A stretch of 64,000 nucleotides of DNA from an uncultured Alphaproteobacteria bacterium (GCA_963751535.1 CAVVUW010000001.1:167955-231954); one strand, 5' to 3'. Numbered from the stretch's first letter, positions 35,326-52,068 are shown. Translations and numbers: made by a program. Notes: a model not told the origin generated them from the letters alone.

Positions 35326-36381
35326 TCACATCATCCGCGCCAGTAGCAGGCCACCGGTCACGACGGCAAATATCACCGCAGACGCGCCGAGCGCCGTCGT
35401 AATGTGTCTCCAGCCGAGGCCGATAATGGTTTTCACCGACGTGCCTAAACCGAGCGCGCCGATGGCGAGTAGCAGACCCCAGGTGGAGACCTCCACCAAT
35501 ACATTTCTAACGGGGGCATAGACCGGAGCCACAGATGGCACCAGCGGTACGGCGCTATTCAGCAAGCAGAGCAACAGAAACACGATCGCAAAGACCGGCA
35601 CCGGCACATGCGCCTCGCCGTGCCGCATGCCAATGCGCGTGAAGTACCAGCCGACACCGAGGACCATCGGTAACAGCAGGAACACGCGGAACAGCTTGAC
35701 GATTACCGCGGTGTTGCCGACCCCACCCGACACTGCGTAACCGGCGCCCACGACCTGTGCGACATCGTGGATAGTTCCGCCGAGCATGACCCCGGTGGTC
35801 TGCGCATCGAAACCGAACAAAATGCACAACGGCGGATAGATCAGCATCGCCAAAGTTGCCAGTGCGTTGACGGCAACTACCACGAAGGCAATGTCCGCCT
35901 CCTTGCCCTTGTAGTCCGGAACAACCGTCGAGGTCGCAAGCGTGGCAGAGGCGCCGCACACCGCGGTACCTACCCCCACAAGCGCCCCGAATCCGGGCGT
36001 CTGCCCGCTCCAACGCGCGAAAGCAAACCCCGACACCACGGTGATCGCCATTGCAACGACAATCAGCATCGCAGTTTGCGCGCCGAGCGCCGCGATGTCC
36101 CCGAGACCGACGCGCAGCCCAAGCAGCGCTACCGCCCAACGCAGCAAGATCTTGACGCAAAACTGCATACCCGGCTGCACCGCGGGCCGCGCTGCCAACG
36201 GGTTAAGTGCTATCCCGACGACAAGCGCTATCACCATGCTGGGGATCGGTACGAAGTGCGCCACATAGGGCGCGGTGACATAACCGATGGCTGCGACAAC
36301 CGCGGAGAGCGCGATCCCGGGAGCAAGCGCGGCTGCCGCCGATACCGACGGGCGCAAAGCTTGCATATTATCTGCGCTCAC
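35326..36381 (-). CDS. YeiH/UPF0324-family membrane protein (family usually annotated as putative sulfate exporter)
   Basis: Polytopic membrane protein (...IALVVGIALNPL..., GGTIHDVAQVVGAGY). GTG at 36381 is preceded by AAGGAA, and ATG 36366 is an alternative. The ORF-track start at 36606 overlaps the upstream gene and is unlikely. Confidence 0.85.
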   Translation of the reverse strand: MSADNMQALRPSVSAAAALAPGIALSAVVAAIGYVTAPYVAHFVPIPSMVIALVVGIALNPLAARPAVQPGMQFCVKILLRWAVALLGLRVGLGDIAALGAQTAMLIVVAMAITVVSGFAFARWSGQTPGFGALVGVGTAVCGASATLATSTVVPDYKGKEADIAFVVVAVNALATLAMLIYPPLCILFGFDAQTTGVMLGGTIHDVAQVVGAGYAVSGGVGNTAVIVKLFRVFLLLPMVLGVGWYFTRIGMRHGEAHVPVPVFAIVFLLLCLLNSAVPLVPSVAPVYAPVRNVLVEVSTWGLLLAIGALGLGTSVKTIIGLGWRHITTALGASAVIFAVVTGGLLLARMM

Positions 36382-36391
36382 AGGCGATTCC

Positions 36392-37297
36392 TTATTGGCT
36401 CGCGACAAGCTTGTTGCCGGCACGGCTGGATTTGAGGCCCGCAGAAACCGCATCGGCAATTTGCGACGGCGTATCGAGGACAGTAACGCCAGCCGCTTCA
36501 AGCGCCTGGCGTTTGGAAGCGTAGCCGCCGGCATTTCCCGTGACGATTGCGCCGGCATGGCCCATTTTCTTGCCAGCAGGCGCGGCCGCCCCGGCAATGA
36601 AAGCAACGATCGGTTTTGTCATCTTCTTAGCGTAAATGGCCGCATCTTCTTCCATCGCGCCACCGATCTCGCCGACGACGACAACCGCGTCGGTGCCGCT
36701 ATCCCTGTCGAGCGCCTCGAGTGCATCGCGCGTCGTCGTGCCGAGCATCGGGTCGCCGCCAATTCCGATGAACGCTGACTGGCCAAGGCCAGCGCGCGTC
36801 AGGTTGAGACAGATCAGCGTACCGAGGCTGCCGCTGCGCGAGATCACGCCGACGCGCCCAGACCTGAATACGCTCGGCACGAATGCAGGCATGATGCCGA
36901 CGAAGCACTCGCCGGGCGTCACTAGGCCCGCAGTATTAGGGCCAACGATGCGTGTGCCGTGCCTCGCCGCTGCGGCATGCATTGCCATGACATCCTGGGC
37001 TGGAATGTGTTCGGTCAGAACAACCAGCAACTTGATACCCGCCTCACCCGCAGACACCGCAGCATCTTTGGCCATCGCCGGGGGAATGAACATGACCGCA
37101 ACATCGCCCCCGACCTTCGCAACCGCTTCGGCTGTGGTCGCAAATATCGGCACGCCGACATGCGTTTCGCCGGCCCGCTTCGGGTTGACCCCCGCGACCA
37201 CGTTGGTCCCGTAGGCAATCATCTTCTCGCTCCAGAAAGTGCCCTGCTTGCCCGTAATTCCGAGCACTACGACACGATCTTTCTTGCGAACGATCAT
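36392..37297 (-). CDS. succinyl-CoA-synthetase alpha-subunit-like protein (CoA-binding subunit of an ADP-forming acyl-CoA ligase)
   Basis: [10 protein letters not shown] (CoA/Rossmann), SRSGSLG, and the phosphohistidine loop [10 protein letters not shown]. The start overlaps the beta-like gene stop (ATGA). Confidence 0.9.
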
Positions 37298-38421
37298 TGC
37301 GCTGCCTTCACCGCCGCCTGGATGGCGTCTTCCATGAACTCATAGGGCTCGATACCAAGCTCGTTGCGAACCAGCGCTAGCGCCTCCTTTTCACCCGTGC
37401 CGTGGATGGAAAAAAACACCGGCACACGCGGTGCAAGCTTGTGCCAAGCGCGCACTACACCTTCGGCCATTACGTCAGTACGCGCGAAGGCACCGCAGAA
37501 GTTGATTACCAGACTTTTCACGCCGGGATTGGAAAGCACCAGATCGAGCGCGATCTCCGACTTGGTGTACGCCTCGCCGCCGATTTCAAGGAAATTTGCT
37601 GGCTTGCCGCCGTAATACCGGATCACATCCATCGTGGTCATGGTGAGTCCCGCGCCGTTGGCCAGAACGCCCACATTGCCGTCAAGCTGAATGAGTTTGA
37701 GGCCATTCTCAGCCCCACGCTTCTCAAGCGCCGTCATCGAGCCAGCGGCCCCACCTTTGGCGAGTTCGGACTGGCGGTAGATCGCCGCATCGTCGAGCAC
37801 AAACTTGCAATCGAGCGCGACCACGCGGCCATCGCCGAGCAGCGCCAGCGGATTTATCTCGAGGAGCTCGGCGTCGCACGTGCGAAACGCCGTGTAGAGC
37901 CGCTCGAGAATTTTCACGGTATGTGTTTCGGCCGGACCAAGATCGAGCCCTTTCAGCATGGCAGCGATGTCGGCCCTATTCGGCTCGCCATCAATATCGA
38001 GCAGCAGGCGCCGGACGGCGGCGGGCTTCACCTGGGCGATTTCTTCGATGTCCATGCCGCCTTCAGTCGAAAACAGGATCAACGGCCTTCGCGCCACGAC
38101 GTCGTGAAGAACGGCGGCATAGAATTCGCGTGCAATATGCGCCTGCTCTTCGACAAGCAGGCGTTCGACCGTGTAACCGCCGATGCTCATCCCGAGGATC
38201 TGTTCGGCGGCCTTGCGCGCTTCGTCGGGCGTATGGGCAAGTTTGATGCCGCCGGCCTTTCCACGTTTTCCGGCCGGCACCTGCGCCTTGACAACACATG
38301 GTCCGATATTCGAAGCGGCCAACACCGCCTCTGCGGCAGTGGTGCAAAGCGCTCCACGGAGTGTCGGAATGCCCGCAGCATTCAGGACGAGTGACTTTGC
38401 CGCGTGTTCGTCAAAGTTCAT
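37294..38421 (-). CDS. succinyl-CoA-synthetase beta-subunit-like protein (ATP-grasp subunit of an ADP-forming acyl-CoA ligase)
   Basis: MNFDEHAAKSLV...VVKAQVPAGKRGKAGGIKLA is a divergent version of the SucC N-terminus (MNIHEYQAK...). The internal ATG at 38421 matches homolog N-termini. Confidence 0.88.
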   Translation of the reverse strand: MNFDEHAAKSLVLNAAGIPTLRGALCTTAAEAVLAASNIGPCVVKAQVPAGKRGKAGGIKLAHTPDEARKAAEQILGMSIGGYTVERLLVEEQAHIAREFYAAVLHDVVARRPLILFSTEGGMDIEEIAQVKPAAVRRLLLDIDGEPNRADIAAMLKGLDLGPAETHTVKILERLYTAFRTCDAELLEINPLALLGDGRVVALDCKFVLDDAAIYRQSELAKGGAAGSMTALEKRGAENGLKLIQLDGNVGVLANGAGLTMTTMDVIRYYGGKPANFLEIGGEAYTKSEIALDLVLSNPGVKSLVINFCGAFARTDVMAEGVVRAWHKLAPRVPVFFSIHGTGEKEALALVRNELGIEPYEFMEDAIQAAVKAAQ

Positions 38422-38462
38422 TACATATAATCTCGTGTGGCGCGCAGTCTGCTCGACATCAA

Positions 38463-39887
38463 TCAGCGTCCGTATTTTTTCCAATAGGCGCCGAACAGGT
38501 CTTCCTCACTCGGCTTGTCTTCCGGAATTGTCGTCACGAGGTGCGTAATGTTGAGGAAATGCCTGTAGTTCAAATTCTCCGTGATGCTGTTGCCTCCCCA
38601 GGTGCCGCACCCCATGCTGAGCGTGAAGTTGAGTCCGTTATCGAATCCCCCGCCATTCCCGAACGTGTGCGCCTGATTGATCAGCACGCGCACTACATCG
38701 GCGCGCTCAGCCAAAGTTCGGCCGCGCTTCATATCTTTTGTATGCAAGCCCACCGAGTGACCCCGTCCTTGGTGCGCGAGGATTTCATTCGCGCGCGCAA
38801 TCGCGGCGTCGAAGTCCTTGACGCGGTAAACGGCCAGTACCAGCGACAGCTTTTCGCTGGAAAACGGAAAACCACGGCCCACGCCGGTTTCCTCAACCAT
38901 GAAAAACTTCTTTGATTGCGCGGCATCGGGCAAACCACATCCGCGCGCAAACACATCGGCATCGCGCGCAATCAGCGTGCGGCTCAACTTGCCGTCGGGC
39001 CACAGCGCAGCCTGGATCGTCGACTTCTCGGCCGGCGAAGCCATGTAGCCGCCCGCGCGTTCGAGAGCCGCGATCGCCTTGTCATAGATCGCCTCAACAA
39101 GGATCACTGAGTTTTCCGACGAGCATGAGGTCGAATTGTCGAAAATCTTGGAAGCGCAAATCTTCTTTGCCGCATCGTCGAGATCGGCCGTTTCGTCGAC
39201 AATCACCGGGACATTGCCGGTCCCCACGCCGATCGCCGGTGTACCACTCGAGTAAGCGCGGCGCACATTGTCCTGGGAGCCGGTGGCCACGATCAGGTCG
39301 GCCGCGTGCATTAATGCCTGCGTCATATCCTTTGACGCGGGCGCCGGCAGAATTTGCACCAGATCTTCGGGCAAACCGATTTTCTTGAGCTCTGCGCGCA
39401 TGTATTCGACCGTCCGCACCGTGGTTTTCAATCCGGCAGGTGAGGCCGCAATAACGATGGCGTTTCGTCCCTTGATTGCCATCATCGCCTTGTTCACCGG
39501 CGTTGCACCCGGATTGGTCGATGGAGTGATGGCGCAAACAAGACCGACCGGTTTCGCGTATTTGACGATGCCGAGTTTCTTGTCTTCCTCAATGATACCG
39601 ACCGATTTCACACGCAGGAGGTCGCGCAATGTGCCGAAGGTCTTGCGCTGCTTCTTGGTAATCTTGTCGGGCACATTGCCGAGTTGAGTATCCTTGACCG
39701 CCAGTTCGGCCAGCTCTTTCGCATGCGCCGGGTTGTATAGAGACCAGGCAAGCGCTGTGACCGCTTCATCCACGCGCGCCTGGTCAGCCTTGGCAAATGA
39801 AGCCATCGCCGCACGCCCACGCCGCACTAGCTCGTCGACCACCGTCGTGACGTTCGAATCGGCCGCCGGTTTTACCGCGACAGTCAT
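38463..39887 (-). CDS. CoA-acylating aldehyde dehydrogenase (SauS-like candidate sulfoacetaldehyde dehydrogenase)
   Basis: ALDH-superfamily fold of the acylating type (ITPSTNPGATPVNK, catalytic Cys region FDNSTSCSSENSV). The SauS-like label comes from operon context with xsc only. Confidence 0.85.
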   Translation of the reverse strand: MTVAVKPAADSNVTTVVDELVRRGRAAMASFAKADQARVDEAVTALAWSLYNPAHAKELAELAVKDTQLGNVPDKITKKQRKTFGTLRDLLRVKSVGIIEEDKKLGIVKYAKPVGLVCAITPSTNPGATPVNKAMMAIKGRNAIVIAASPAGLKTTVRTVEYMRAELKKIGLPEDLVQILPAPASKDMTQALMHAADLIVATGSQDNVRRAYSSGTPAIGVGTGNVPVIVDETADLDDAAKKICASKIFDNSTSCSSENSVILVEAIYDKAIAALERAGGYMASPAEKSTIQAALWPDGKLSRTLIARDADVFARGCGLPDAAQSKKFFMVEETGVGRGFPFSSEKLSLVLAVYRVKDFDAAIARANEILAHQGRGHSVGLHTKDMKRGRTLAERADVVRVLINQAHTFGNGGGFDNGLNFTLSMGCGTWGGNSITENLNYRHFLNITHLVTTIPEDKPSEEDLFGAYWKKYGR

Positions 39888-39903
39888 GTCATCAGCTCCG
39901 CAT

Positions 39904-41691
39904 TCACAGATTGGCCGTTTGTTGTGGCCGCATGTCCTCGCGCCTTATGCCGGCCACGACCACCGGCTTCTTCATGGCATCGCGGCGGAACGGCTCACCA
40001 AGTTCCTGATTGAGAACTACCTCGATGAAGGTCGTGACGCGCTTCTTCTGCGCCTCGCAAGACTGCCGAAGTGCCTCCGTCAGTTCCGTCGCCGTTTTTA
40101 CTACTACGCCCTTGAGACCACAGGCTTCGGCCACCTTTGCATAGCTGAGATGCGGGTCGAGTTCGGTACCGACGAAATTGTCGTCGAACCAAAGAATCGA
40201 GTTGCGCTTTTCTGCGCCCCATTGGTAATTGCGAAAGACCACCATAGTGATGCCCGGCCACTCCTCGCGGCCAACCGAACTCATTTCGTTCATTGAGATT
40301 CCGAAGGCGCCGTCACCGGCAAACCCGATACAAGGCGTATCCGGATTGCCGATTTTGGCGCCTATGATGGACGGAAAGCCGTAACCGCAAGGCCCAAAAA
40401 GCCCCGGCGCCAGGTATTTCCGGCCTTTGTCGAATGTTGGATAGGCATTGCCGATAGCGCAGTTGTTGCCGATATCGCTCGAGATGATCGCATCCTTGGG
40501 CAGTCCGGCCTGAATGGCCCGCCAGGCCTGCCGCGGCGACATACGATCCGCATCCCGCTTGCGCGCATCCGCATTCCAGGTCGTACCTGGATCATCGTCT
40601 TCATGATCCATACTGGACAAAGTCTGAAGCCATTTGGACTTGGTCGTATGGATCAATGCCTTCCGATCTTCGCGTCCGGCATTCCCAGCCGAGGGAGACA
40701 GTTGCGCCAGAATGCTTTGGGCGACCAGCTTGGCATCGCCACAAATGCCGACGGTCACTGGCTTGGTCAGGCCGATCCGGTCGGCGTTGATATCGACCTG
40801 AATGATTTTGGCGGTCTTCGGCCAGTAGTCGATACCGTAGCCCGGCAAGGTCGAAAACGGGTTGAGTCTTGTCCCCAGCGCGAGAACCACGTCGGCCTTG
40901 GCAACCAGTTCCATTGCCGCTTTCGATCCGTTGTAGCCGAGGGGCCCGACGGCGAGCCTATGGCTGCCGGGGAAACTGTCATTGTGCTGGTAGTTGTTGC
41001 AAACCGGCGCGTCGAGCCTTTCGGCGAGCGCGACGCAATCGGGAATCGCGTTGCCAAGCACGACACCCGCACCCGAGAGAATAACCGGGAATTTGGCGCC
41101 CGAGAGAAGCCTCGCCGCGTCCGCCACCGCGTGGGCACCGCCCGACGGCCGCTCGAACTCGACGATGGCCGGCAAATTGATGTCGATCATTTGCGTCCAG
41201 TAGTCACGCGGGATGTTGATCTGCGCGGGCGCCGAAAGGCGCTTTGCTTTGGTGATGACGCGATTGAGAACCTCTGCCGTACGTGACGGATCACGCACTT
41301 CTTCCTGATAGCAGACCATGTCGCGAAACAACGCCATCTGCTCCACTTCCTGGAAACCGCCCTGACCGATCGTCTTGTTCGCCGCCTGCGGCGTTACCAG
41401 GAGCATCGGCGTGTGATTCCAGTACGCGGTCTTGATGGCGGTGACGAAATTCGTGATGCCTGGGCCGTTTTGCGCAATCGCCATAGCGATTTTCCCGGTC
41501 GATCGCGTGTAGCCATCGCAGATCAGACCGCCATTGGTCTCGTGGGCAACGTCCCAGAATGTAATACCGGCTTTGGGAAAGAGATCGGATATCGGCATGA
41601 ATGCCGAGCCGATGATGCCGAAGGCATGCTCGATGCCGTGCATCTGCAACACCTTCACGAATGCTTCTTCGGTAGTCATCTTCATAGTCAT
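39904..41691 (-). CDS. xsc: sulfoacetaldehyde acetyltransferase (ThDP-dependent)
   Basis: The N-terminus MKMTTEEAFVKVLQMHGIEHAFGIIGSAFMPISDLFPKAGI...TAYWNHTPMLLVTPQAANKTIGQGGFQEVEQ matches what I recall of Xsc proteins. By RBS spacing the likely true start is ATG 41685. Confidence 0.88.
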   Translation of the reverse strand: MTMKMTTEEAFVKVLQMHGIEHAFGIIGSAFMPISDLFPKAGITFWDVAHETNGGLICDGYTRSTGKIAMAIAQNGPGITNFVTAIKTAYWNHTPMLLVTPQAANKTIGQGGFQEVEQMALFRDMVCYQEEVRDPSRTAEVLNRVITKAKRLSAPAQINIPRDYWTQMIDINLPAIVEFERPSGGAHAVADAARLLSGAKFPVILSGAGVVLGNAIPDCVALAERLDAPVCNNYQHNDSFPGSHRLAVGPLGYNGSKAAMELVAKADVVLALGTRLNPFSTLPGYGIDYWPKTAKIIQVDINADRIGLTKPVTVGICGDAKLVAQSILAQLSPSAGNAGREDRKALIHTTKSKWLQTLSSMDHEDDDPGTTWNADARKRDADRMSPRQAWRAIQAGLPKDAIISSDIGNNCAIGNAYPTFDKGRKYLAPGLFGPCGYGFPSIIGAKIGNPDTPCIGFAGDGAFGISMNEMSSVGREEWPGITMVVFRNYQWGAEKRNSILWFDDNFVGTELDPHLSYAKVAEACGLKGVVVKTATELTEALRQSCEAQKKRVTTFIEVVLNQELGEPFRRDAMKKPVVVAGIRREDMRPQQTANL

Positions 41692-41717
41692 GTCCTCTCA
41701 GCCCCGTTCTTGATGGC

Positions 41718-42587
41718 TCAGGTCTTGTCCTGAAAAATCTCGGCTAGCTCGCTGGCGGCGCTTCTCAGCGCCGGCAAATGGCGGCGCGCTGTTTGAACAT
41801 TCATGCGTGCCTCTGGCGCCTGGATAGCAAGGGCCGCGAGCATCTCACCGTTGGTCCCCGTTACCGGAACGGCCATACAGACAACGCCCAGCAGATACTC
41901 TTGCCGGTCGAAAGAGACCTGCTCTTTTCGAATCTGACGAAGCTCGAACTCGAGCCGATCACTGTCGGTGATGGTGTTATCGGTGTATCGCCGCAGTTCC
42001 AGACTCTGCAGGAGCCGCTTGCGGCGCGGCGAAGCAGCCAACGCAAGGAATAACTTGCCGATGGCACTGCAGTGCAGTGGCACGCGTGAGCCACTGGTGT
42101 AGTGCAGGCGGAGGGGCCAATGCTCGGCTTCGACGCGATCGAGATAAACCACCTCGCCGTTCAGGAGCGTACCGATATTGCAGGTCTCGTTGAGCGTATG
42201 GACGAGGCGCTGAAGCACCACGTGCGGCGTGTCATGTCGCATCGAGGACGACAGCGCACCAAAGGCAAGATTCGCGAGTTTTGGACCGACAATCAGCCGG
42301 CGCCGTCCGGGCTCGCGCGCGAGATAGCCTTGCGTCACAAACCAATCCACCAACCGATAAGCCGTCGCCTTCGGCAATTTCACTGAAGCGATAATGTCGA
42401 GCACGTCGACCGGCGTACGTGAGCTTGCGACATGTTCGAGGATAGCGAAGGAACGTGCTGTAGCCCCGAGTTTGTGCTCGCGCGCGGCGCCCGTCTTCGA
42501 AGGACTAAGATGTGGTTTGAGCTCATCCACATTCCGCCCGGAGCCGGTACCAGTGGCCCTTTCGTGAATTCCGAGATTGCTACGCAT
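41718..42587 (-). CDS. IclR-family transcriptional regulator
   Basis: N-terminal wHTH (ARSFAILEHVASSRTPVDVLDIIASVKLPKATAYRLVDWF) plus an IclR effector domain (...GVVCMAVPV...). Confidence 0.9.
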   Translation of the reverse strand: MRSNLGIHERATGTGSGRNVDELKPHLSPSKTGAAREHKLGATARSFAILEHVASSRTPVDVLDIIASVKLPKATAYRLVDWFVTQGYLAREPGRRRLIVGPKLANLAFGALSSSMRHDTPHVVLQRLVHTLNETCNIGTLLNGEVVYLDRVEAEHWPLRLHYTSGSRVPLHCSAIGKLFLALAASPRRKRLLQSLELRRYTDNTITDSDRLEFELRQIRKEQVSFDRQEYLLGVVCMAVPVTGTNGEMLAALAIQAPEARMNVQTARRHLPALRSAASELAEIFQDKT

Positions 42588-42594
42588 GGATCAC

Positions 42595-44112
42595 CTACCT
42601 AGCCCCCGTTTGGACAGTCATCACGCGACTTCTGAATAGGCGCTGCACGAACGGCAGCAACAGGACGACAATGGTCAGTACAACGATGGTTCCAGAGATG
42701 GGTCGCGTGAAGAATACGGTCCAGTCATTCGAAAAACTGATCATCGTGTTCATGAACGCCTCTTCGGCAATCGGACCGAGGATGACGCCAAGTACGAGCG
42801 GCGCGACCGGAAATTTCAGGCGTTCGAAACCATAGCCTAGAATGCCGAACCCGATGATCAGCCAAAGATCCGTAATGTTGTTGCGGATCGACAGCGCACC
42901 GATGAAGCAGAGGATCAACACGTAAGCCGAGACAACCGCCTCGGGAAAATCGAGGATTTTCACGAGGGGCCGGATCGCGAAATAGCCGAGCGCGCACATC
43001 AGCGCCAAGCCGAGGAACAGTGATGCAAACACCGTATAGACAAGGGGCGCCGAGTTCGCGAGAACCTGCGGACCCGGTTGAATTCCGTGCAGCATGAAGG
43101 CACCGAGAATGACTGCGGTTGCACCGCTGCCCGGAATGCCAAGTGCAAGCAGATGAACCATGGCTCCGCCGACTGAAGCTGTCGCTGCGGCCTGCGGCGC
43201 GATGATCCCTTCGGCAATCCCCGTCCCCATCTGATCCTTGCGCTTGCCGAAACGCGCCTCGATTCCGTAGCTCACGAACGATGCAATAGTAGCGCCGGCG
43301 CCCGGCAACAGCCCGATGAGATCGCCGACCACCGAAGAGCGAAAAAACATGCCCTTCACCTCATTAAGCTCCTTGAGCGTCGGCAATTCGGTGCGTGCAT
43401 TCGAAATCTTGTCGAGTGGCTTGGTGGTAAAGCCTAATTCCAGACGCGTCAGAACTTCACCTACGCCATAGGCGCCGACCATGACCACGAGAAACTCGAT
43501 GCCGTCGGCGAGAATGGGTGAACCGAAGGTGAAACGGTAGGCGCCGTAGATCGGATCAGTGCCGACAGTTGAAATCAGAATGCCGACGCTCATGCTAATG
43601 AAGGCGTTGGCGAGTGATCCCTTGCCGATCGCTACCACGCTGAGCAAGCCGAACATGATGATCACAAAATACTCGGGCGAGGAAAAACGCAGAGCGAATT
43701 TGGCAAGCGGTTCTGTAAGCGCCACCATGACGACCGCCGAGAGAAGCCCGCCACCAAGAGCCGCGACCAGGGTCCAGCCCAGCGCCTTGGCTGGCTTGCC
43801 CTTGCGCCCCATGGTGTAACCGTCCCACAGCATGGGAACGTCAATGGGCTCCCCCGGAATTCGGAAGAGGATCGCGGTGAAAGCGCCGCCGTAAGTTCCC
43901 GATACGTACATCGCGGTGAGCAAAACGATCGAGGCGGTGACGTCCATCTTGTAGGTGAAGGGCAAGGCCAGCGCGACGCCCATGACCAACGTCAGCCCCG
44001 GCAACACGCCGATCAGCAGACCAATGACGATGCCGATCACAAGCATCGCCAGATTGAGCGGCGTCAGACAGTGCAGAAACCCCGAGGCCAGCTGAGCGAG
44101 AATGTCAATCAT
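42595..44112 (-). CDS. tctA: TTT large permease TctA (second system)
   Basis: The start MIDILAQLASGFLH is at 44112. TctA repeats are present (GVLPGLTLVMGVALALP, GIPGSGATAVILG). Confidence 0.9.
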   Translation of the reverse strand: MIDILAQLASGFLHCLTPLNLAMLVIGIVIGLLIGVLPGLTLVMGVALALPFTYKMDVTASIVLLTAMYVSGTYGGAFTAILFRIPGEPIDVPMLWDGYTMGRKGKPAKALGWTLVAALGGGLLSAVVMVALTEPLAKFALRFSSPEYFVIIMFGLLSVVAIGKGSLANAFISMSVGILISTVGTDPIYGAYRFTFGSPILADGIEFLVVMVGAYGVGEVLTRLELGFTTKPLDKISNARTELPTLKELNEVKGMFFRSSVVGDLIGLLPGAGATIASFVSYGIEARFGKRKDQMGTGIAEGIIAPQAAATASVGGAMVHLLALGIPGSGATAVILGAFMLHGIQPGPQVLANSAPLVYTVFASLFLGLALMCALGYFAIRPLVKILDFPEAVVSAYVLILCFIGALSIRNNITDLWLIIGFGILGYGFERLKFPVAPLVLGVILGPIAEEAFMNTMISFSNDWTVFFTRPISGTIVVLTIVVLLLPFVQRLFRSRVMTVQTGAR

Positions 44113-44116
44113 GCGC

Positions 44117-44659
44117 TCACCATAGGCTCGGAATCGCAAAGAAGATGTCGGTCGCGCGATCGAATGGCGGAACGCCACGCGGCAGTGAAACATAGGCAAT
44201 ACGCAAAAACAGAATTCCGCAGAAGATCGTCACAGCCGCGCTGGTGCCCCAGATCGCGCGGTGCTCGCGGTACCCGCCGACATACATGAAGGCGGCGAGG
44301 AATAGGAACGTGCCGAGGATGAACCCGAGCACAGGCACGAGGACGGCATAGATCGCCATCAGAACAATGCCGCCGACCAGCAATCGCGGATAAACGGGCT
44401 GTTTTTCCTCGACCTGCGGCTCTCGGTCGAATGCCTCCATAAATCCGGCGGCATCCTGATTGCCGACGATCAGCCGACGTGAGATTTCAAACAGGCAGGA
44501 GCCGCCCATCAGCAGGATTGCAAGGCGTGGCCACACGTCGGGCCCGAGTTGCCCGGGCCGAGGTGCGTAGTCGAATGTGCCTGCATAAAGATAAAGAGCG
44601 GCCGCGATGGCGAGACCCATCGCATAAGGCACAATCGAGCGGAACAGCGCCTTGTCCAT
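44117..44659 (-). CDS. tctB: TTT small subunit TctB (second system)
   Basis: 180-aa four-helix membrane protein between tctC and tctA. Confidence 0.85.
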   Translation of the reverse strand: MDKALFRSIVPYAMGLAIAAALYLYAGTFDYAPRPGQLGPDVWPRLAILLMGGSCLFEISRRLIVGNQDAAGFMEAFDREPQVEEKQPVYPRLLVGGIVLMAIYAVLVPVLGFILGTFLFLAAFMYVGGYREHRAIWGTSAAVTIFCGILFLRIAYVSLPRGVPPFDRATDIFFAIPSLW

Positions 44660-44678
44660 GAGACGTTGTCCGGCGATT

Positions 44679-45633
44679 TCAGTTCGTCGCTACGGTCTTT
44701 TTCATGTCGTCGAGCTGTTCGTTCACGAAGGCCGGAGCCTTCGACGCATCCTCAAAACTGTTCGGATCGGCGTATTGCTCCTCGAGGAACTTCTTGTACT
44801 CGGGTGATGCGTAGACCTTCGCCAGCGCTTCCGAAAGTTTCTTCACGACGTCGGGTGGTGTGCCGGCCCGCACGACGATCGCACGAAATTGCGGCAAGCG
44901 CCACCTTGTAGCCGAGCTCAAATGACGTTGGCACATCTTTGAATGCGTCCAGGCGCTTTTCACCGAACAGCAAAATGGGACGCATCTGTTTGCCGTTGAG
45001 GAACTGCGCAACATCGCCGGCCTGCTCGTAGAGTGCATCGGCGTGACCGCCGAGGATCGAGACATAGCGCTCGCTGGGCTTGGAGAACGGCACTTGGACG
45101 ACCTTGATGCCACCGCGGTCAAGCACGGTGAGCGAAAAATCATCGACACTGCCAAAGCCAAGCGTCGCAACCTTCAGTTTGTTCGGATTGGCCTTGGCTT
45201 CTTTGGCGAAGTCGTCCCAGGTTTTGAAGGGGCTATCCTCCTTCACGAAAATAAACGATGGACCCTTGATCATCACCGCGACTGGCGTGATGTCGTTCAT
45301 CGTCCAACGCGCGCTTTTTCCGGCGAGCAGCGCATGACTATCGGCGATATATATCGCCATGGAGTAGCCGTCGGCAGGCGCGGCAAGGAGTTTCGCCATA
45401 CCGGTCGCACCGGTGCCCCCAGGGACGTTCACAACCGGGATGCCCTGACCGAGCATCGGCTCCATCAGCTTGCTGACGAGGCGCGCGAGTTGATCGGCGC
45501 CACCACCTGGGCCCCACGGAACGATCAGTTCGATAGGTCGCTCGGGATATCCGGCCGCGACCGCCTTGCCCCCGAACAGCGCGGCACCAATGGCCAACAG
45601 CAAAATTGTGACGCTTCGCATGGTCGAACGCAT
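44679..45633 (-). pseudogene. tctC: TTT substrate-binding protein TctC (Bug family, second system) split by a 1-nt frameshift
   Basis: ORF 44752-45633 reads ...VPTSFELGYKVAL and then turns into nonsense. ORF 44679-45170 carries the Bug C-terminus LPQFRAIVVRAGTPPDVVKKLSEAL.... The frames join near 44895-44903 if one base is removed from AAGGTGGCGCTTGCCG. Confidence 0.85.
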
Positions 45634-45757: not shown

Positions 45758-45850
45758 TCTCGCCTAGTGAGACCTATGTTCCCAATACGCTAACAGAAGG
45801 TCTCGGTCCGGCAAGGGCGAATCCGAGGCGCCACGTCTCGCCAAGTGAGA
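45758..45850. promoter_or_regulatory. two copies of a 15-bp palindromic motif upstream of the TTT-xsc array (candidate IclR operator)
   Basis: TCTCGC-CTA-GTGAGA at 45758-45772 and TCTCGC-CAA-GTGAGA at 45836-45850. A third copy lies at 47077-47091. Confidence 0.5.
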
Positions 45851-45904: not shown

Positions 45905-47047
45905 TTAGCGCTGCTCCAGGGGCACGTAGGTACGGGCGTCGGGCCCGTTATAAAGCGTGAGCGGACGCAGAAGGATGTTGTTCTCAAGCTGCTCGAGCAC
46001 CTGCACTACCCAACCGGGCACGCGACCGATCGCGAAGATCGGCACGAACAGATCGCGCTTTATGCCGAGCAGGTGATAGACAACGCCCGAGTAGAAATCG
46101 ACGTTCACGTTCACGCCATGACGCGCATAGGGCGCCATCGCCGCGACCACCGCCTGTAGGATCTCGAACCACTTTGGCTGACCCATTTCCTTTGAAAGGC
46201 GCTCCACGCCTGCGCGCATATGGCGGGCACGCGGATCTTCTGCGCGATAGACACGGTGACCGAAGCCGGTGACCGCTATTCCGGCCTTGCGTTTTTCCTT
46301 TACATAGTCCGCGGCACGCGACGGATCGCCAATCTCCTCGGCCATCTTCATAACGTCCTCCGCGGCGCCGCCATGCGCCGGGCCCGACAACGCCGCAATA
46401 GCCGCAACGATCGCAGCATGGAGATTTGCTTCAGTACCGATCACAACCCGCGCGGCGAACGATGAGGCGTTAGAGCCGTGCTCGGCATGCAGGATCAGAT
46501 CACGGTCGATCAGCTGTGCAGCGTCGACGCTTGGCTTTTTCCCCATCAACATCCAGAGCAGATTGGCGGAATGGTTGAGCGTCTGATCGGCCGGCACAGG
46601 ATCTTGATCGGCGCGGATGCGCGAATGTGCGGCGACGATCATCGGTATCTGCGAAGTCAGCCGAATGGCCTTGCGGAGCGTAGCTTCACGTGAGTTGTCC
46701 GCCGTTTCGGGATCAAACGCAGACAGAGCCGACGCTGCCGTACGTAGGACATCCATGGGATGCGCCGATTTGACGGCGTGAATGATGTCAAGGACGGGGG
46801 CTGGCAGCTTACGCGCCGCCTTTAGATCGGCATCAAAAGCAGCGAGCTGCTGCTTGCTGGGCAATTCGCCGTTAAGCAATAGCCAGGCAGTCTCCTCGAA
46901 GCTCGAATGCTCGGCGAGGTCATGAATTGAATAACCACGGTAGCGCAGTTCGCCCGCCTTGCCGTCGATGAAGGTACAGGGCGAACGATCAAAGTAAACG
47001 CCCTTCAGGCCGCGTTGAATCTTGATCGCTTCGGCGGTTTCGGTCAT
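45905..47047 (-). CDS. citrate synthase family protein (short ~380-aa type; citrate/2-methylcitrate synthase or citryl-CoA-lyase-like)
   Basis: The catalytic blocks HAEHGSNAS, GFGHRVYR and NVDFYSG are present. The start MTETAEAIK is at 47047. Confidence 0.88.
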   Translation of the reverse strand: MTETAEAIKIQRGLKGVYFDRSPCTFIDGKAGELRYRGYSIHDLAEHSSFEETAWLLLNGELPSKQQLAAFDADLKAARKLPAPVLDIIHAVKSAHPMDVLRTAASALSAFDPETADNSREATLRKAIRLTSQIPMIVAAHSRIRADQDPVPADQTLNHSANLLWMLMGKKPSVDAAQLIDRDLILHAEHGSNASSFAARVVIGTEANLHAAIVAAIAALSGPAHGGAAEDVMKMAEEIGDPSRAADYVKEKRKAGIAVTGFGHRVYRAEDPRARHMRAGVERLSKEMGQPKWFEILQAVVAAMAPYARHGVNVNVDFYSGVVYHLLGIKRDLFVPIFAIGRVPGWVVQVLEQLENNILLRPLTLYNGPDARTYVPLEQR

Positions 47048-47076: not shown

Positions 47077-47091
47077 TCTCACGCGGTGAGA
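47077..47091. promoter_or_regulatory. third copy of the TCTCRC-N3-GTGAGA palindrome, in the citrate-synthase-like/pta divergent region
   Basis: TCTCAC-GCG-GTGAGA has perfect 6-bp arms. It lies 30-44 nt from the ATG at 47047 (-) and 4 nt before the pta ATG at 47095. Confidence 0.5.
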
Positions 47092-47094
47092 AGC

Positions 47095-48078
47095 ATGGAC
47101 TTGCTCAAGAAGCTTTTTGATATCGCACGGCAGCGCAATCGCAAAATCGTTTTGCCGGAAGGCGAAGATGAACGGATCATTATCGCTGCCGCACGCCTTG
47201 CGAGCGAGAAGATCGCCTCCCCTATCCTCCTCGGCTCTGCTGAGGAGCTTACGCGACTTGCCGGCCAGCATAGCGTCTCGCTATCCGGGATCGAGATTGC
47301 CGACCCGCGCAGCGACGCGCGACTGCAAAGCTATGGTTCAGCGCTCGCGCGGCTCCGCGAGTCGATGACCCCATCGGTGGCCATGCGTCTCGCGTCTAAA
47401 CCGATCTATTTTGGAGGCATGATGGTTCGGGAAGGCCATGCAGATGCGATGGTCGCGGGCTGCGCCAACCCGACGCGGCGCGTAATCGAGGCGGGGTTGA
47501 TGACCGTCGGATTGGCAGATGGCATCACGTTGCCGTCGAGCTATTTCCTGATGATCGTGCCGGATTTCCTTGGGCAAGGTCCAAGATCGTTCATCTTTGC
47601 CGATTGTGCGGTCAATGCTGATCCGACATCCGCCGAGCTTGCCGATATTGCGATCACTTCGGCACACAGCGCGAAGGCGCTACTCAAAGAGACTCCGCGT
47701 GTGGCGATGCTGTCCTTTTCGACCAAGGGCAGCGCACAGCACGCACGCGTCGATAAGGTGCGGGAGGCCATGAGTCTGGTGCGCCAACGCGAACCGGACC
47801 TTGCCATCGATGGGGAGTTTCAGGCTGACGCGGCCTTGGTGCCGAGCGTCGCGCGGAAGAAAGTAAAGGAGGACAGCGCGGTCGCCGGACAGGCGAATGT
47901 CCTGATTTTTCCTGACCTCGACTCGGGCAATATCGCCTACAAGCTCACGCAGTGGCTCGGCGGCGCCCAGGCAATCGGCCCATTCCTGCAGGGCTTTGCC
48001 AAACCAATCAGCGATTTATCGCGCGGCGCCACAGTTGAAGATATCGTCACAACGTCCGCCGTGGTGGCGGCGAGGTGA
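47095..48078 (+). CDS. pta: phosphate acetyltransferase
   Basis: MDLLKKLFDIARQRNRKIVLPEGEDERII...ADAMVAG...FADCAVN...LIFPDLDSGNIAYK are typical short-form Pta motifs. Confidence 0.9.
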   Translation: MDLLKKLFDIARQRNRKIVLPEGEDERIIIAAARLASEKIASPILLGSAEELTRLAGQHSVSLSGIEIADPRSDARLQSYGSALARLRESMTPSVAMRLASKPIYFGGMMVREGHADAMVAGCANPTRRVIEAGLMTVGLADGITLPSSYFLMIVPDFLGQGPRSFIFADCAVNADPTSAELADIAITSAHSAKALLKETPRVAMLSFSTKGSAQHARVDKVREAMSLVRQREPDLAIDGEFQADAALVPSVARKKVKEDSAVAGQANVLIFPDLDSGNIAYKLTQWLGGAQAIGPFLQGFAKPISDLSRGATVEDIVTTSAVVAAR

Positions 48079-48101: not shown

Positions 48102-49691
48102 TTAGTGCTTCCACTCCGGCGCGGGCACCGGCTTCCACGCGCGCTTGAGCTTGAGGTCGTCGACGATCGCGTTGGCGGCAATGTAGCCCGGAGCCCCGTT
48201 GATACCTCCTCCGTTTCCCGACGACGAACCACAAAGATAGAGCCCTTCCACCGGCGTGCGGGATCCAGGCATCAGAGGATGCGGCCGGTTGATACCGAGC
48301 TGGTTCGGCACATAGGCCCCGACACGCACGGCACCCTGGCGCATGTTCGCATTGAGCTTTTCCACATCGAGCGGCGTGAACAAGTAGGTCCCAATCAGGT
48401 TGTCGCCTTCGAGATTGGACGCGTAGATACGCCAGTAATCGAGGACACGGCGAGTGTATTCGGCGCGATTGCGCTCCCATTCCTGCGGCGAGCCATCCAC
48501 TGAATAGGGAGCAAACGGCCACCAGAACGCAGCGTGCTTGCCACCGGGTGCGTAGCTCGGATCGAACATACTGTTGCACGCACCATTGCCCATCAGCACG
48601 CTGGGAAATTTTTTTGCCGCACAGTCTTCAAAGCAGCTCGCGACGTCGTCAATGTGATCCATGCCGAAAAAGATATTGTAGGCGCGCGAAATATCGGCAT
48701 CGAAAGCAGCTGCGCGGTAGGCCGGAGGGTCTTTGAGCGCGAGGTGCAACGTCACCAGGCTGTGGTTGCCCCAATGCCACGACTTCGCTTTTTCTCGCAC
48801 CGGCTCGGGAAATAATTCTTCGCCGGTCATTCGCACGGTCGTGGGAAAATCGATCGCACTTGCCACGAATTTGCGGCCATCGACCGTGCGACCATCGGCA
48901 AGCTTCACCCCGGTGGCCCGCCCGTTGGTGACTTTGATTTCTCTCACCTCTGCGTCTGTGATGATCTCGCCGCCGCCGGCCTCCACCACCCGCGCCAGCG
49001 CGAGCGCAAGAGAAACTGCGCCGCCAACCGGCAATGTAAAGCTGGCGATATTGGCAAAGATCGCCGGAAAGACGATTCCCGCGCCTGGCACATTTTCGGT
49101 CGTGATGACGTGCATGTAGGACGTGAACAGGGTTCGAATGCGCTCGTCGACAAAATGCTTCCGCACAACACTGAAGAGATCGTGCTGAGCATGCGAAAGC
49201 AGTTCCTTTGCCTTTGGTCCGCTCAGCCGGTCGATCAGTTGCTCGCGCGGCATCGGCGCGTTGTAAAGCAATGATACCAGTAACGGTCGCATTTCCTCGC
49301 AATAGGTGTGCCACAACGCGCGAAATGTCTCGGCGTCCTGCCGGGAAAATCGAGCAAGCGACGCGCAGCTCTTGTCTAGATCCTTGTAGATGACAATGCC
49401 GGTGCCATCACGGAAGACAGCCGCTTGCTGAACGGGCGGCTCGATATAGGAAAAGCCATAGCGATGGAGCTCAAGGTCCCGCAACAAAGGACAAAACCCG
49501 ATGCCCATGTAAAAATTCGCGTGCAGATTGAGCCTATAGCCGGGAAGAATGCGCTCCTCCGTGCTCGAACCCCCACCGATGCGGTTATTGCGCTCAAGTA
49601 CGGCAACTCGCATGCCCGCGCGCGACATATAAGCGGCAAGAGCGAGACCATTGTGGCCGGCTCCGATTACGACGCCGTCGAAATCCGTCAT
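48102..49691 (-). CDS. CrtI/phytoene-desaturase-family NAD(P)/FAD-dependent oxidoreductase
   Basis: N-terminal dinucleotide fold VVIGAGHNGLALAAYMSRAGMRVAVLERNNRIGG. It is 529 aa and starts 10 nt after the comE-like stop. Confidence 0.85.
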   Translation of the reverse strand: MTDFDGVVIGAGHNGLALAAYMSRAGMRVAVLERNNRIGGGSSTEERILPGYRLNLHANFYMGIGFCPLLRDLELHRYGFSYIEPPVQQAAVFRDGTGIVIYKDLDKSCASLARFSRQDAETFRALWHTYCEEMRPLLVSLLYNAPMPREQLIDRLSGPKAKELLSHAQHDLFSVVRKHFVDERIRTLFTSYMHVITTENVPGAGIVFPAIFANIASFTLPVGGAVSLALALARVVEAGGGEIITDAEVREIKVTNGRATGVKLADGRTVDGRKFVASAIDFPTTVRMTGEELFPEPVREKAKSWHWGNHSLVTLHLALKDPPAYRAAAFDADISRAYNIFFGMDHIDDVASCFEDCAAKKFPSVLMGNGACNSMFDPSYAPGGKHAAFWWPFAPYSVDGSPQEWERNRAEYTRRVLDYWRIYASNLEGDNLIGTYLFTPLDVEKLNANMRQGAVRVGAYVPNQLGINRPHPLMPGSRTPVEGLYLCGSSSGNGGGINGAPGYIAANAIVDDLKLKRAWKPVPAPEWKH

Positions 49692-49700
49692 GCTGCCCCA

Positions 49701-50324
49701 CTATGCGCTCGCGGCCTTTACCCCAAGACCGCGCATGAAACGCTCGCGAATTTGAACCGGGTCACGATCCGTCGTTGCTACCGCCGGTTTGTCGTCGATG
49801 CGAACGGCGATCAGGTTCGGCCCCTCACCCTTGAGTGCTGTTGTAACCAAGCGATCGAAGTCCGTCTCGTCAGCAGCCCAGACACTGCTTGCAATGCCGG
49901 CGCCACGCGCAATTGCGACAAGGTCAGCTGCCGGACTTGCGGTCGGCTGCGAGCCGGTGATCTGATAGATGCCGTTGTCCCAAACAACGATCGTGAGATT
50001 TTTCGGCGCGCGTTCGCCCACGGTTGCGAGACAGCCAAGCTGCATCAACAGAGAGCCGTCGCCTTCGAGCGCAAAAACATGTCGACGCGGTTGCGCAATG
50101 GCAACGCCAAACGCAATCGGTATTGCGAGCCCCATGCTGCCGAGCATGTAGAAATTTTGCGGGCGTTGACCACTAGCCCAAAGATCGAAATTGGCATTGC
50201 CGATGCCGCCGATGACGGCTTCCTCGTGCTTGAGCTGACCGACGAGCCGCTTGGTCAATTCGAAGCGGTTCATAACCTTGGCATTGTGCGCCGGTGTCGC
50301 TCCAGACGATTTCGTGTTCGTCAT
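49701..50324 (-). CDS. comE: sulfopyruvate decarboxylase beta-subunit-like ThDP enzyme subunit
   Basis: ThDP/Mg motif EGDGSLLMQLGCLATVGERAPKNLTIVVWDNG. The internal ATG at 50324 gives about 207 aa. A split phosphonopyruvate decarboxylase cannot be excluded. Confidence 0.75.
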   Translation of the reverse strand: MTNTKSSGATPAHNAKVMNRFELTKRLVGQLKHEEAVIGGIGNANFDLWASGQRPQNFYMLGSMGLAIPIAFGVAIAQPRRHVFALEGDGSLLMQLGCLATVGERAPKNLTIVVWDNGIYQITGSQPTASPAADLVAIARGAGIASSVWAADETDFDRLVTTALKGEGPNLIAVRIDDKPAVATTDRDPVQIRERFMRGLGVKAASA

Positions 50325-50328
50325 GGCG

Positions 50329-50865
50329 TCACCCTTCAAACACTTTGCCGCCTGTGAGCAACGGCGACAGGATAAAAGCAACAGGCGCTTGGGTGGCCAC
50401 GGCTTGCTTGATGGACCGATCAATCGTAAAGGCCAGTTCGTCCTGGCGTGTGATCGTGACGTTCTCGACCGCAAGTGAATTGAGCACCGGTCGCATCGTC
50501 TTGTACACCAGCGCCTGCCCGAGATTGAACTCGCCGAGCGTGCCGCGTTCCGAAACAAATATCAGCGCCGGAATCTGACAGGGCACAACAAGCGAGGCGA
50601 GTGCATTTGGAATAGTAGCGAAGCCGCTGGTCTGCATCAGGACGGCACCGCGTAGTCCACCCATCCACGCACCGGTAATGATGCCGATGGCTTCTTCCTC
50701 GCGCGTGGCAGCAAACGTCGTGAAAAACTGATCGGCGTGAAGGGACTTGATCAGCGGCGTGAACACCCGATCAGGCACATAAACGATGAGCTTGACGTTG
50801 TTCGCCTTGAGGGTTGCGAGAATGATCTCGTGCCAGTTGGTTGCCTGTGCTTGATCGTCTGTCAT
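50329..50865 (-). CDS. comD: sulfopyruvate decarboxylase alpha-subunit-like ThDP enzyme subunit (PYR domain)
   Basis: ~178 aa from ATG 50865. The REEEAIGIITGAWMGG block carries the conserved Glu of ThDP PYR domains. It lies 4 nt upstream of the beta-subunit gene. Confidence 0.75.
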   Translation of the reverse strand: MTDDQAQATNWHEIILATLKANNVKLIVYVPDRVFTPLIKSLHADQFFTTFAATREEEAIGIITGAWMGGLRGAVLMQTSGFATIPNALASLVVPCQIPALIFVSERGTLGEFNLGQALVYKTMRPVLNSLAVENVTITRQDELAFTIDRSIKQAVATQAPVAFILSPLLTGGKVFEG

Positions 50866-51023
50866 GGGCGGCAAAATTGCGTACACCTGTACTGAAATTC
50901 GTGTCGTTCTTGCCAAGCTATCGGCGCTTGCTTGAGGCCATTGCTCGCGCAAACGCAAAAGCTTAGCCTAACAGGAATAATGCAACTAATCAGAAAATTT
51001 TGCCGAAACTCAAGGGGAGGACG

Positions 51024-52040
51024 ATGACAAAAACAAATGGACACTCTGCGCCGTCACGACGCAGCATCATTAAAGGCGCTGGTGTAATGGCGGCCGGCGT
51101 CGCCGCTCCGTCAATCCTGAGCATGCGCTCGGCCTATGCCGCCTACCCCGACAGGCCGGTAAAAATAATCGTGGCCAATACGCCGGGCGGACCGTCCGAT
51201 ATTGTCGGGCGCATCACGGCAGGCGCGCTTCAGCAATCAACAGGCAAGACTTTTATCATCGAAAATATCGGGGGCGCGGGTGGAAACATCGGCTTCGGCA
51301 ACGCCGCGCACGCTGCTCCGGATGGCTACACCATCCTTCTTGCGACCAATGCGTGGTCGGTGAATGTCAGCCTCTACAACAAGATCCCCTACGATCCGCT
51401 GAAGGATTTTGTCGGCGTGAGCGAACTTGCAACCTCGCCCAATACGTTCGTCGTCAAGTCGGATTTGCCGGCGAAGACCATGCAGGAATTCGTTGCGCTT
51501 GCGCGAGCCAATCCCGACAAATTCAACTGCGCGACGCCACCGATCGGCACAACTCCCCAGATTCAGCTTGAGGTGCTCAAGATCCGGGAAAAACTGCCCA
51601 AACTTGAGAACGTGGTCTACAAGGGCGGCGGTGACGCCATTCAGGCCCTGCTGAGCGGAACCGCCCAACTGAGTTCCGGTTCGCTCCCGCCAGCGGCACC
51701 GCATATCAAGGCCGGCACAATGCGGTGCCTCGCGGTTACAGGCGAAGAACGCTGGCCGGATCTGCCGGACGTACCGACCATGGTGGAAGCAGGATACAAG
51801 GATTTCGTTTTCGCGACCGACACCAACCTGCTTGCTCCCGCAAAGACGCCCCCTGAAATCGTGAAATGGCTGGAAGCGGAAACGCTAAAGGTGCTCGGTA
51901 CTCCGGAAATGAAGGAGAAGTTATATCAGGCCGGTTTCCAGGTCCGGCCAAAGGGCGCCGATGCCGCCTGGGCCCGCGTGAACAAGGAAATCGATCTGTT
52001 CAGAAGCATCATCGACCAAGCCGGGATTCAGAAGCTGTAG
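51024..52040 (+). CDS. Bug-family (TctC-like) periplasmic substrate-binding protein with a twin-arginine leader
   Basis: MTKTNGHSAPSRRSIIKGAGVMAAGVAAPSILSMRSAYA is followed by YPDRPVKIIVANTPGGPSD, typical of Bug proteins. RBS GGGGAGGA precedes ATG 51024. Confidence 0.88.
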   Translation: MTKTNGHSAPSRRSIIKGAGVMAAGVAAPSILSMRSAYAAYPDRPVKIIVANTPGGPSDIVGRITAGALQQSTGKTFIIENIGGAGGNIGFGNAAHAAPDGYTILLATNAWSVNVSLYNKIPYDPLKDFVGVSELATSPNTFVVKSDLPAKTMQEFVALARANPDKFNCATPPIGTTPQIQLEVLKIREKLPKLENVVYKGGGDAIQALLSGTAQLSSGSLPPAAPHIKAGTMRCLAVTGEERWPDLPDVPTMVEAGYKDFVFATDTNLLAPAKTPPEIVKWLEAETLKVLGTPEMKEKLYQAGFQVRPKGADAAWARVNKEIDLFRSIIDQAGIQKL

Positions 52041-52068
52041 AACAATCGTCATCGGCCAAAACCCTCGC

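Follow-up and report, generated by a model that had tools for sequence, protein, structure and literature searches.

The sulfoacetate route of Cupriavidus necator H16, encoded by sauRSTU together with xsc and pta (Weinitschke et al. 2010, as summarised in PMC10413351), leads in that summary from sulfoacetate to sulfoacetyl-coenzyme A (CoA), then through SauS to sulfoacetaldehyde, through Xsc to acetyl phosphate and sulfite, and through Pta to acetyl-CoA. In Bilophila wadsworthia an ADP-forming ligase, SauCD, has been characterised and is encoded in the cluster sauXYZ-sauS-sauCD-tauF-iseGH, in which SauZ, the binding protein of a tripartite tricarboxylate transporter (TTT), binds sulfoacetate with a Kd of 0.13 uM; in the SauXYZ neighbourhoods surveyed, SauT or SauCD stands together with SauS and in many cases Xsc, SauT predominating among alpha- and gammaproteobacteria (Liu et al. 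2023, PMC10413351). A cluster of sauSCD with a TTT system was also predicted, in a 2025 study, in a metagenome-assembled genome (MAG) of a sponge symbiont (PMC12625764). Here we describe a locus in a 64,000-nucleotide stretch of DNA (the window) from an uncultured Alphaproteobacteria bacterium (GCA_963751535.1, CAVVUW010000001.1:167955-231954), which very probably is chromosomal, serves sulfoacetate catabolism and belongs to a soil alphaproteobacterium of the Pseudolabrys type (Xanthobacteraceae).

The locus resembles that of C. necator in the series of reactions it is predicted to encode but, as far as the summary of that system goes, its ligase would be an ADP-forming one of the SucCD fold instead of the AMP-forming SauT, its importer is a TTT system instead of the major facilitator superfamily (MFS) protein SauU, its regulator belongs to the IclR family instead of being the LysR-type SauR, and it has xsc inside the operon as well as a citrate-synthase paralogue and a candidate exporter of the PF03601 family. 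With B. wadsworthia it shares a TTT importer, an acylating sulfoacetaldehyde dehydrogenase and a two-subunit, presumably ADP-forming ligase, whereas carbon-sulfur cleavage would here be carried out by the O2-insensitive Xsc and not via isethionate and the glycyl-radical enzyme IseG, and the host is an aerobic-type soil alphaproteobacterium with a Cupriavidus-type SauS. The sponge symbiont likewise has SauS, SauCD and a TTT system outside the sulfite reducers, alongside taurine and Xsc-type metabolism, but it is marine, its cluster is a prediction only, and no IclR regulator or operator, citrate synthase or YeiH is described for it (PMC12625764). The initial annotation of this DNA had considered the variant architecture to be possibly novel; however, ADP-forming SauCD with TTT SauXYZ (PMC10413351) and sauSCD with a TTT system (PMC12625764) have already been published, and the locus is therefore a further example of a known system, the essentials of its architecture being already in print. 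The relevant literature that we found does not cover how widely the SauCD-type route occurs among aerobic soil bacteria, a consistent IclR association or candidate operator, a co-regulated citrate-synthase paralogue, or a sequence signature for the ligase subfamily.

Gene content and conservation of the locus

Genes were found and named using a list of open reading frames (ORFs) and scans with Pfam and NCBIfam hidden Markov models (HMMs), with start codons fixed by homologue lengths and HMM alignments. All nine minus-strand genes of the array at 35326-45633 were recovered in the order initially proposed (tctC, tctB, tctA, IclR regulator, thiamine diphosphate (ThDP) enzyme, aldehyde dehydrogenase, SucC-like, SucD-like and YeiH), separated by 19, 4, 7, 26, 16, 41, -4 and 25 nt, in keeping with the maximum of 41 nt claimed for them, and the ATGA overlap of the SucC-like and SucD-like genes can be read straight from the sequence. 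The locus is nevertheless bigger than first described. Pta had been left to act from elsewhere, but pta in fact adjoins the array in divergent orientation, and both it and a citrate-synthase paralogue are part of the same conserved locus and apparently co-regulated with it:

35326-36366, minus strand: PF03601 (YeiH/SuyZ, PSE family) transporter, candidate sulfite/sulfate exporter (PF03601, 200 bits)
36392-37297, minus strand: sauD-like alpha subunit (CoA-binding, phosphohistidine) of the putative ligase (PF02629 and PF00549), in ATGA overlap with sauC
37294-38421, minus strand: sauC-like beta subunit (ATP-grasp) of a putative ADP-forming acid-CoA ligase (PF08442 and PF00549)
38463-39887, minus strand: sauS, CoA-acylating sulfoacetaldehyde dehydrogenase (NF047625 equivalog)
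39904-41691, minus strand: xsc, ThDP-dependent sulfoacetaldehyde acetyltransferase (TIGR03457, NF005713)
41718-42587, minus strand: IclR-family regulator inside the operon (PF09339 and PF01614)
42595-44112, minus strand: tctA, large membrane subunit of the TTT importer (PF01970, 442 bits, full length)
44117-44659, minus strand: tctB, small membrane subunit of the TTT importer (PF07331, 55 bits)
44679-45633, minus strand: tctC, SauZ-like periplasmic binding protein of the TTT importer, in two ORFs, 44752-45633 and 44679-45170 (PF03401)
45905-47047, minus strand: citrate synthase II / 2-methylcitrate-synthase-family paralogue (TIGR01800, 426 bits, cut-off 421; PF00285, 401 bits)
47095-48078, plus strand: pta, phosphate acetyltransferase (TIGR00651, 326 bits, cut-off 311; NF007233, 351 bits, cut-off 310)

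The citrate-synthase gene is co-directional with tctC and lies 271 nt upstream of it, and pta, with its ATG at 47095, diverges from the citrate-synthase gene across a 47-nt gap.

The sulfoacetate-desulfonation reading is supported by Xsc and SauS, both of which score above equivalog cut-offs, by the SucCD-fold ligase whose genes directly follow sauS, and by agreement with the biochemistry published for this route. Xsc reaches 958 bits on TIGR03457 (cut-off 676) and 1031 bits on NF005713 (cut-off 620), while the best acetolactate-synthase model gives only 281 bits, so that the comparison set beforehand between these two enzyme types came out in favour of Xsc; the protein is also 80% identical to the annotated Xsc of Azospirillum brasilense Sp7. 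The acylating aldehyde dehydrogenase, already taken for SauS in the initial annotation, obtains 788 bits on the NF047625 equivalog (cut-off 600), and Pta passes the equivalog threshold of TIGR00651. All three TTT components, TctC, TctB and TctA, are co-encoded with the sau genes (PF03401, PF07331 and PF01970), and the Pfam families agree with the replacements that had been claimed for SauU, SauR and SauT. A sequence search of the PDB gave no characterised TctC hinting at a ligand, the closest relatives there being uncharacterised TctC proteins at about 34% identity. Rfam and tRNA scans found nothing within the locus.

In the proposed pathway, the TctC-type protein would bind sulfoacetate, the predicted ligand of the importer, in the periplasm, and TctAB would import it in the manner of the SauXYZ TTT system. 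Sulfoacetate, also the probable substrate of the SauCD-like ligase, would then be converted to sulfoacetyl-CoA, with ATP yielding ADP and Pi via the phosphohistidine of the alpha subunit, and SauS would reduce this product to sulfoacetaldehyde with NADPH. Xsc would use phosphate to cleave sulfoacetaldehyde, giving acetyl phosphate and sulfite, the divergently encoded Pta would form acetyl-CoA from acetyl phosphate, and the citrate-synthase paralogue, judging by its position in the locus, may condense acetyl-CoA with oxaloacetate to citrate. Sulfite, or sulfate once oxidised, would leave through the PF03601/YeiH-type transporter, and the embedded IclR protein probably controls the pta/citrate-synthase and tctC promoter regions through palindromes of the TCTCA-N5-TGAGA type.

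The closest proteins and genomes are MAGs of Pseudolabrys and Undibacter (Xanthobacteraceae), a placement with which a Rhizobiales-2 RNA motif at 1295-1395 is consistent (42 bits against an Rfam gathering threshold of 40). Counted over 60 species-level genome loci with enough flank, the order Pta|citrate synthase-TctCBA-IclR-Xsc-SauS-SauC-SauD is kept in about 55-60 of the 60 Pseudolabrys-lineage genomes, and the gene-neighbourhood survey suggested at the outset gave these counts: SauS, Xsc and the IclR regulator are each present in 60/60 relatives, the TTT system (TctA) in 59/60, the citrate synthase in 57/60 and a divergent pta, on the opposite strand, in 55/60. As the same order recurs in some 60 species-level genomes, the arrangement is not a matter of chance. 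The TTT module is exchanged among the loci, 41 having the same type, 13 one that is about 50% identical, 5 a distant type (about 30-37% identical and with another gene order) and 1 none; in the loci with a swapped or lost module (L033, L041-L043, L047, L051, L052, L057, L073 and L080) the enzymes are still 75-95% identical.

This exchange, with three module types and one locus lacking any, would also fit if the ligase, and maybe the importer, served another acid such as 3-sulfopropanoate, malonate or some other short dicarboxylate-like anion, with Xsc acting on another C2 sulfonate. The specificity of the ligase is predicted here from sequence and context, and for Bilophila SauCD the activities given with 3-sulfopropanoate and malonate are 20% and 7%, respectively (PMC10413351). 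Nevertheless, a SauS equivalog always adjoins the ligase and Xsc is always present (60/60 each), Xsc needs a C2 aldehyde, and the conserved operon offers no other route to sulfoacetaldehyde, which makes a different substrate quite unlikely.

Sulfoacetate as the substrate also accords with clusters of the same core in cultured aerobes. Plasmid p3 of A. brasilense Sp7 (L081, NZ_CP012917) and Indioceanicola profundi have an IclR gene, a Pta-like gene, TctCBA, SauS, SucCD-like genes that are 66-71% identical to those of the window (in A. brasilense Sp7 with the products WP_035683067 and WP_035683069), a three-subunit membrane molybdoenzyme and Xsc, the SauS of Azospirillum, the one of the two that was scanned, scoring 810 bits on the NF047625 equivalog. 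On plasmid pDK3 of Rhodococcus sp. DK17 (L083), Pta, Xsc, PntAB, an MFS transporter, SauS (equivalog, 805 bits), SucCD-like genes (51% identical), an IclR gene and TauE are found. IclR genes thus accompany the clusters of Azospirillum, Indioceanicola and Rhodococcus, and the citrate-synthase paralogue is absent from those of Azospirillum and Rhodococcus. The Azospirillum molybdoenzyme is possibly a sulfite dehydrogenase of the Soe type, being Soe-like in its three-subunit architecture alone; an NCBIfam scan of it matched no SoeA model. The NADPH-generating transhydrogenase and the sulfite-handling genes of these cultured clusters fit the reductive, desulfonating direction.

The SucCD-fold ligase and its subfamily

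The two ligase subunits, encoded by ATGA-coupled genes, have the SucCD fold (PF08442/PF00549 in the beta subunit and PF02629/PF00549 in the alpha subunit). The SucC-like protein has 375 residues, the length found in all homologues, and is up to 93% identical to the closest proteins, which come from Pseudolabrys/Undibacter MAGs; in the alpha subunit the phosphohistidine loop GHAGA is intact, starting at residue 246 with the histidine at residue 247. Canonical SucC is characterised by the loops NIFGGI(T/V)RCDEVA and IGGGA, from which the beta subunit departs, having CGAFARTD instead of GGI(T/V)RCD; the SauC protein carries NFCGAFARTDVMA and IGGEAYT-K where canonical SucC has NIFGGITRCDEVA and IGGGA. 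Both loop replacements, with the CGAFAR signature, are found in 120/120 close homologues and in the Azospirillum and Rhodococcus proteins, as well as in 19 of the 150 listed representatives at 50% identity, nearly all of them among the top-scoring. By this signature the window ligase is placed in a distinct, 'aerobe-type' subfamily, whose genes adjoin sauS in 60/60 relatives and also in Azospirillum, Indioceanicola and Rhodococcus.

The alpha subunit scores barely above the SucD equivalog (339.8 against 336 bits), as would be seen if the pair were a housekeeping succinyl-CoA synthetase with coincidental sulfonate neighbours. The beta subunit, however, falls below the cut-offs of both SucC models (345.7 against 370 and 316 against 376 bits), other sequences stand in place of the canonical GGITRCD and GGGA loops, and the pair is invariably linked to sauS and xsc in both Alphaproteobacteria and Actinobacteria. 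The Azospirillum and Rhodococcus genes are annotated either generically or as succinyl-CoA ligase, and the RefSeq annotation of Azospirillum does not name them SucCD. A housekeeping role is, from these comparisons, excluded in practice.

Anaerobes provide a point of comparison for a sulfoacetate ligase of this fold. SqwD and SqwKL of the sulfo-transketolase variant (Chu et al. 2023, cited in PMC12890257) are, as presented there, a homologous aldehyde dehydrogenase and SucCD-fold ligase acting on sulfoacetaldehyde, sulfoacetyl-CoA and sulfoacetate, but they run oxidatively, gain ATP and excrete sulfoacetate. One SucC-like homologue, P0407, was found in two settings: on a Spirochaete contig with the sulfo-transketolase variant (GH31, a split transketolase, RpiB, an aldehyde dehydrogenase and a SucCD-like pair) and, on a second contig, in a cluster of aldehyde dehydrogenase, SucCD and Na/sulfate symporter (loci L086 and L087). 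Both settings agree with the arrangements described for SqwD/SqwKL and for SauS-SauCD-SauI (PMC12890257, PMC10413351) and mark P0407 as anaerobe-type by context; one ligase type accordingly appears in both sulfoacetate-forming and sulfoacetate-consuming settings. Among the context-checked representatives only P0407 gave such a clear setting, a search from representative P0134 leading to an anaerobe clade whose own contexts were 2-oxoacid:ferredoxin oxidoreductase (OFOR) with SucCD and TTT, or GntR with a tripartite ATP-independent periplasmic (TRAP) transporter.

The window SauC shares 39% identity with P0407, as against 37-43% with canonical SucC, and P0407 falls in a separate clade in a quick neighbour-joining tree; the two proteins nevertheless have in common an ARxDVMA motif and the loss of one residue from the GG loop. 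The ligase motif type differs from that of SqwD/SqwKL (VTFGTIARADVMA), and the window ligase seems to differ from that of B. wadsworthia in belonging to a separate subfamily, as gauged by its 39% identity to this context-defined anaerobe-type homologue. The characterised B. wadsworthia proteins (SauC/SauD, E5Y8P8/E5Y8P7; BwSauZ, UniRef50_Q165A0) were compared with the window proteins by description.

The reversibility of the SauS and SauCD reactions, which are used oxidatively in anaerobes (PMC12890257), and the occurrence of P0407 in just such a sulfoquinovose cluster raise the possibility that the window dehydrogenase and ligase also work in that direction, from sulfoacetaldehyde through sulfoacetyl-CoA to excreted sulfoacetate and ATP, with Xsc as a competing branch. 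Several features argue against this: a binding-protein-dependent TTT system is an importer type, the cluster has no gene for making sulfoacetaldehyde from taurine, isethionate or sulfoquinovose, Xsc, Pta and citrate synthase are co-located with the pair, the Rhodococcus cluster includes the NADPH-generating transhydrogenase, and the window dehydrogenase is a Cupriavidus-type SauS equivalog, while the dehydrogenase from the SqwD context obtains 555 bits against the cut-off of 600. Oxidative operation is consequently regarded as very unlikely, and the reductive breakdown of imported sulfoacetate is retained as the preferred reading.

Candidate operators, importer and exporter

Three palindromes of the form TCTC-N7-GAGA lie in the two promoter regions of the locus, a pattern with exactly 3 occurrences across the whole 64 kb (0.87 expected):

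45758-45772 and 45836-45850: two candidate operator palindromes, about 139 and about 217 nt upstream of the tctC start
47077-47091: candidate operator palindrome TCTCACGCGGTGAGA, within the 47 nt that separate pta from the citrate-synthase gene

The tctC-proximal site is part of a conserved block, TATTGAGAAC-N4-GTCTCA-N5-TGAGACT, situated about 140 nt from the ATG in 35/36 relatives, the site between pta and the citrate-synthase gene is kept in a form like TCTCACCGCGTGAGA in 48/54, and the Azospirillum cluster has a comparable palindrome ahead of an IclR gene. The exact 16-mer TCTCACTWGGCGAGAC was rejected as an operator, matching only 2/80 loci; it is the relaxed TCTC-N7-GAGA that is conserved. 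Their conservation and position suggest that the palindromes are putative operators of the embedded IclR regulator. A palindrome of the TCTCA-N5-TGAGA type (loci L001-L080) could define an IclR regulon comprising pta, the citrate-synthase gene and the operon from tctC to yeiH.

The frameshift that the initial annotation had reported in tctC was borne out: relative to three intact relatives, the gene is split by one extra T (minus strand) at 44897, the sole indel in the coding DNA of the locus whose length is not a multiple of three when compared with the closest genome (92.2% nucleotide identity). TctC is thereby truncated after about 245 correct residues, and removal of the extra base restores a 317-residue protein with a signal peptide that matches the TctC of the closest relative (L001) almost residue for residue. 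Since the frameshift is isolated and the frame past it still open and about 94% conserved, it has either arisen very recently or is an error. The minus strand carries a second TTT system, unrelated to the first (TctA at 7547-9064 and TctB at 9070-9609), whose tctC is likewise split by a frameshift (N-terminal part at 10092-10718, C-terminal part at 9728-10120). Two of the three tctC genes in the window are thus broken, which would be odd were the indels random.

A genuine recent pseudogene, by which the pathway would be disabled in this genome without the assignment of the locus being altered, is suggested by the truncation itself and by the intact tctC of 39/40 relatives, the remaining one (L029, from a MAG collection) having a comparable split. 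The open and conserved downstream frame, the lack of any further lesion in the locus, and the split genes of L029 and of the second system (9728-10718) argue the other way and are typical of the sporadic indel errors of long-read metagenome assemblies. We therefore lean towards sporadic assembly indels, a true loss of the binding protein being possible though less probable.

The PF03601 protein gives a full-length Pfam match (profile positions 1-303 of 304, 200 bits), which upholds the family part of its earlier assignment as a YeiH-type sulfite/sulfate exporter; the narrower part does not hold as well, given a score below the TIGR00698 YeiH cut-off (110 against 233 bits) and a gene that is optional, standing directly after sauD in 40/73 loci. 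Sulfite export, the function that recent work favours for SuyZ/YeiH proteins, has been proposed for them (PMC11582611), and YeiH gives Salmonella sulfite resistance (PMC12880088). Like SuyZ/YeiH proteins (PSE family, TC 2.A.98), the window protein is encoded beside a sulfite-releasing desulfonation enzyme, but unlike them it scores under TIGR00698 and is dispensable in about half of the relatives. Transport by PF03601 members in such sulfonate clusters is a proposed function. The large ORF at 11880-14828 was considered as SoeA and rejected, being a dehydrogenase of the YdiJ/GlcD type with flavin adenine dinucleotide (FAD) and iron-sulfur domains.

A number of points weigh against the assignment of the locus to sulfoacetate catabolism. 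The window SauC is no closer to P0407, the homologue from SqwKL/SauCD contexts (39%), than to canonical SucC (37-43%), and the likeness of the window ligase and TctC to Bilophila SauCD and SauZ was drawn by description and with P0407 as a proxy rather than by direct alignment. The frameshifted binding-protein gene means that uptake may be defective in this sequence, no sulfite dehydrogenase is present in the 64-kb window, and the YeiH gene is missing from nearly half of the relatives. Finally, the single transcript is suggested by gene spacing alone, with no promoter or terminator consensus seen: a sigma-70 promoter scan returned 0 promoters and intrinsic-terminator-like sites were fewer than in shuffled sequences, these scans being uninformative.

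Neighbouring modules and significance

Beside pta lies a further module, at 48102-53190, which is linked to pta-citrate synthase-TTT-IclR-Xsc in three relatives and has no TCTC-N7-GAGA site within it:

48102-49691, minus strand: FAD amine-oxidase-family protein
49701-50324 and 50329-50958, minus strand: two-subunit ThDP decarboxylase, ComDE-like
51000-52040, plus strand: orphan TctC
52069-53190, plus strand: enolase-superfamily MR/MLE enzyme

The decarboxylase is most like the sulfopyruvate/phosphonopyruvate decarboxylase ComDE, under the cut-offs, and is 40% identical to an annotated Roseobacter ComE; the module could channel a C3 sulfonate via sulfopyruvate to Xsc. Further along, at 54749-56244, phage-like genes (a Siphovirus Gp157 family member and a Rad52/22 recombinase-DUF968 fusion) with slightly lower G+C are possibly a prophage remnant.

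A wider reading would join these elements: the CGAFAR ligase of aerobes (Pseudolabrys, Azospirillum and Rhodococcus) would have arisen from succinyl-CoA synthetase by a recruitment separate from that of the Bilophila/SqwKL type, the IclR regulon of Pseudolabrys would be self-contained, leading from sulfoacetate to citrate, and the adjoining module could feed a C3 sulfonate (cysteate or sulfolactate) via sulfopyruvate into the same Xsc. As a whole this combination is doubtful.

The locus brings no new chemistry; the ligase signature and the candidate regulator-operator pair could improve annotation, the ADP-forming ligase being regularly mislabelled as succinyl-CoA synthetase. That the locus is conserved in dozens of Pseudolabrys-lineage genomes from uncultured bacteria, and its core in the cultured Azospirillum and Rhodococcus strains, suggests that the ATP-cheaper, ADP-forming activation of sulfoacetate is common in aerobes, correcting the impression that these chiefly use SauT. 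Sulfoacetate arises from the turnover of sulfoquinovose and taurine, which makes its mineralisation a component of sulfur cycling in soil.

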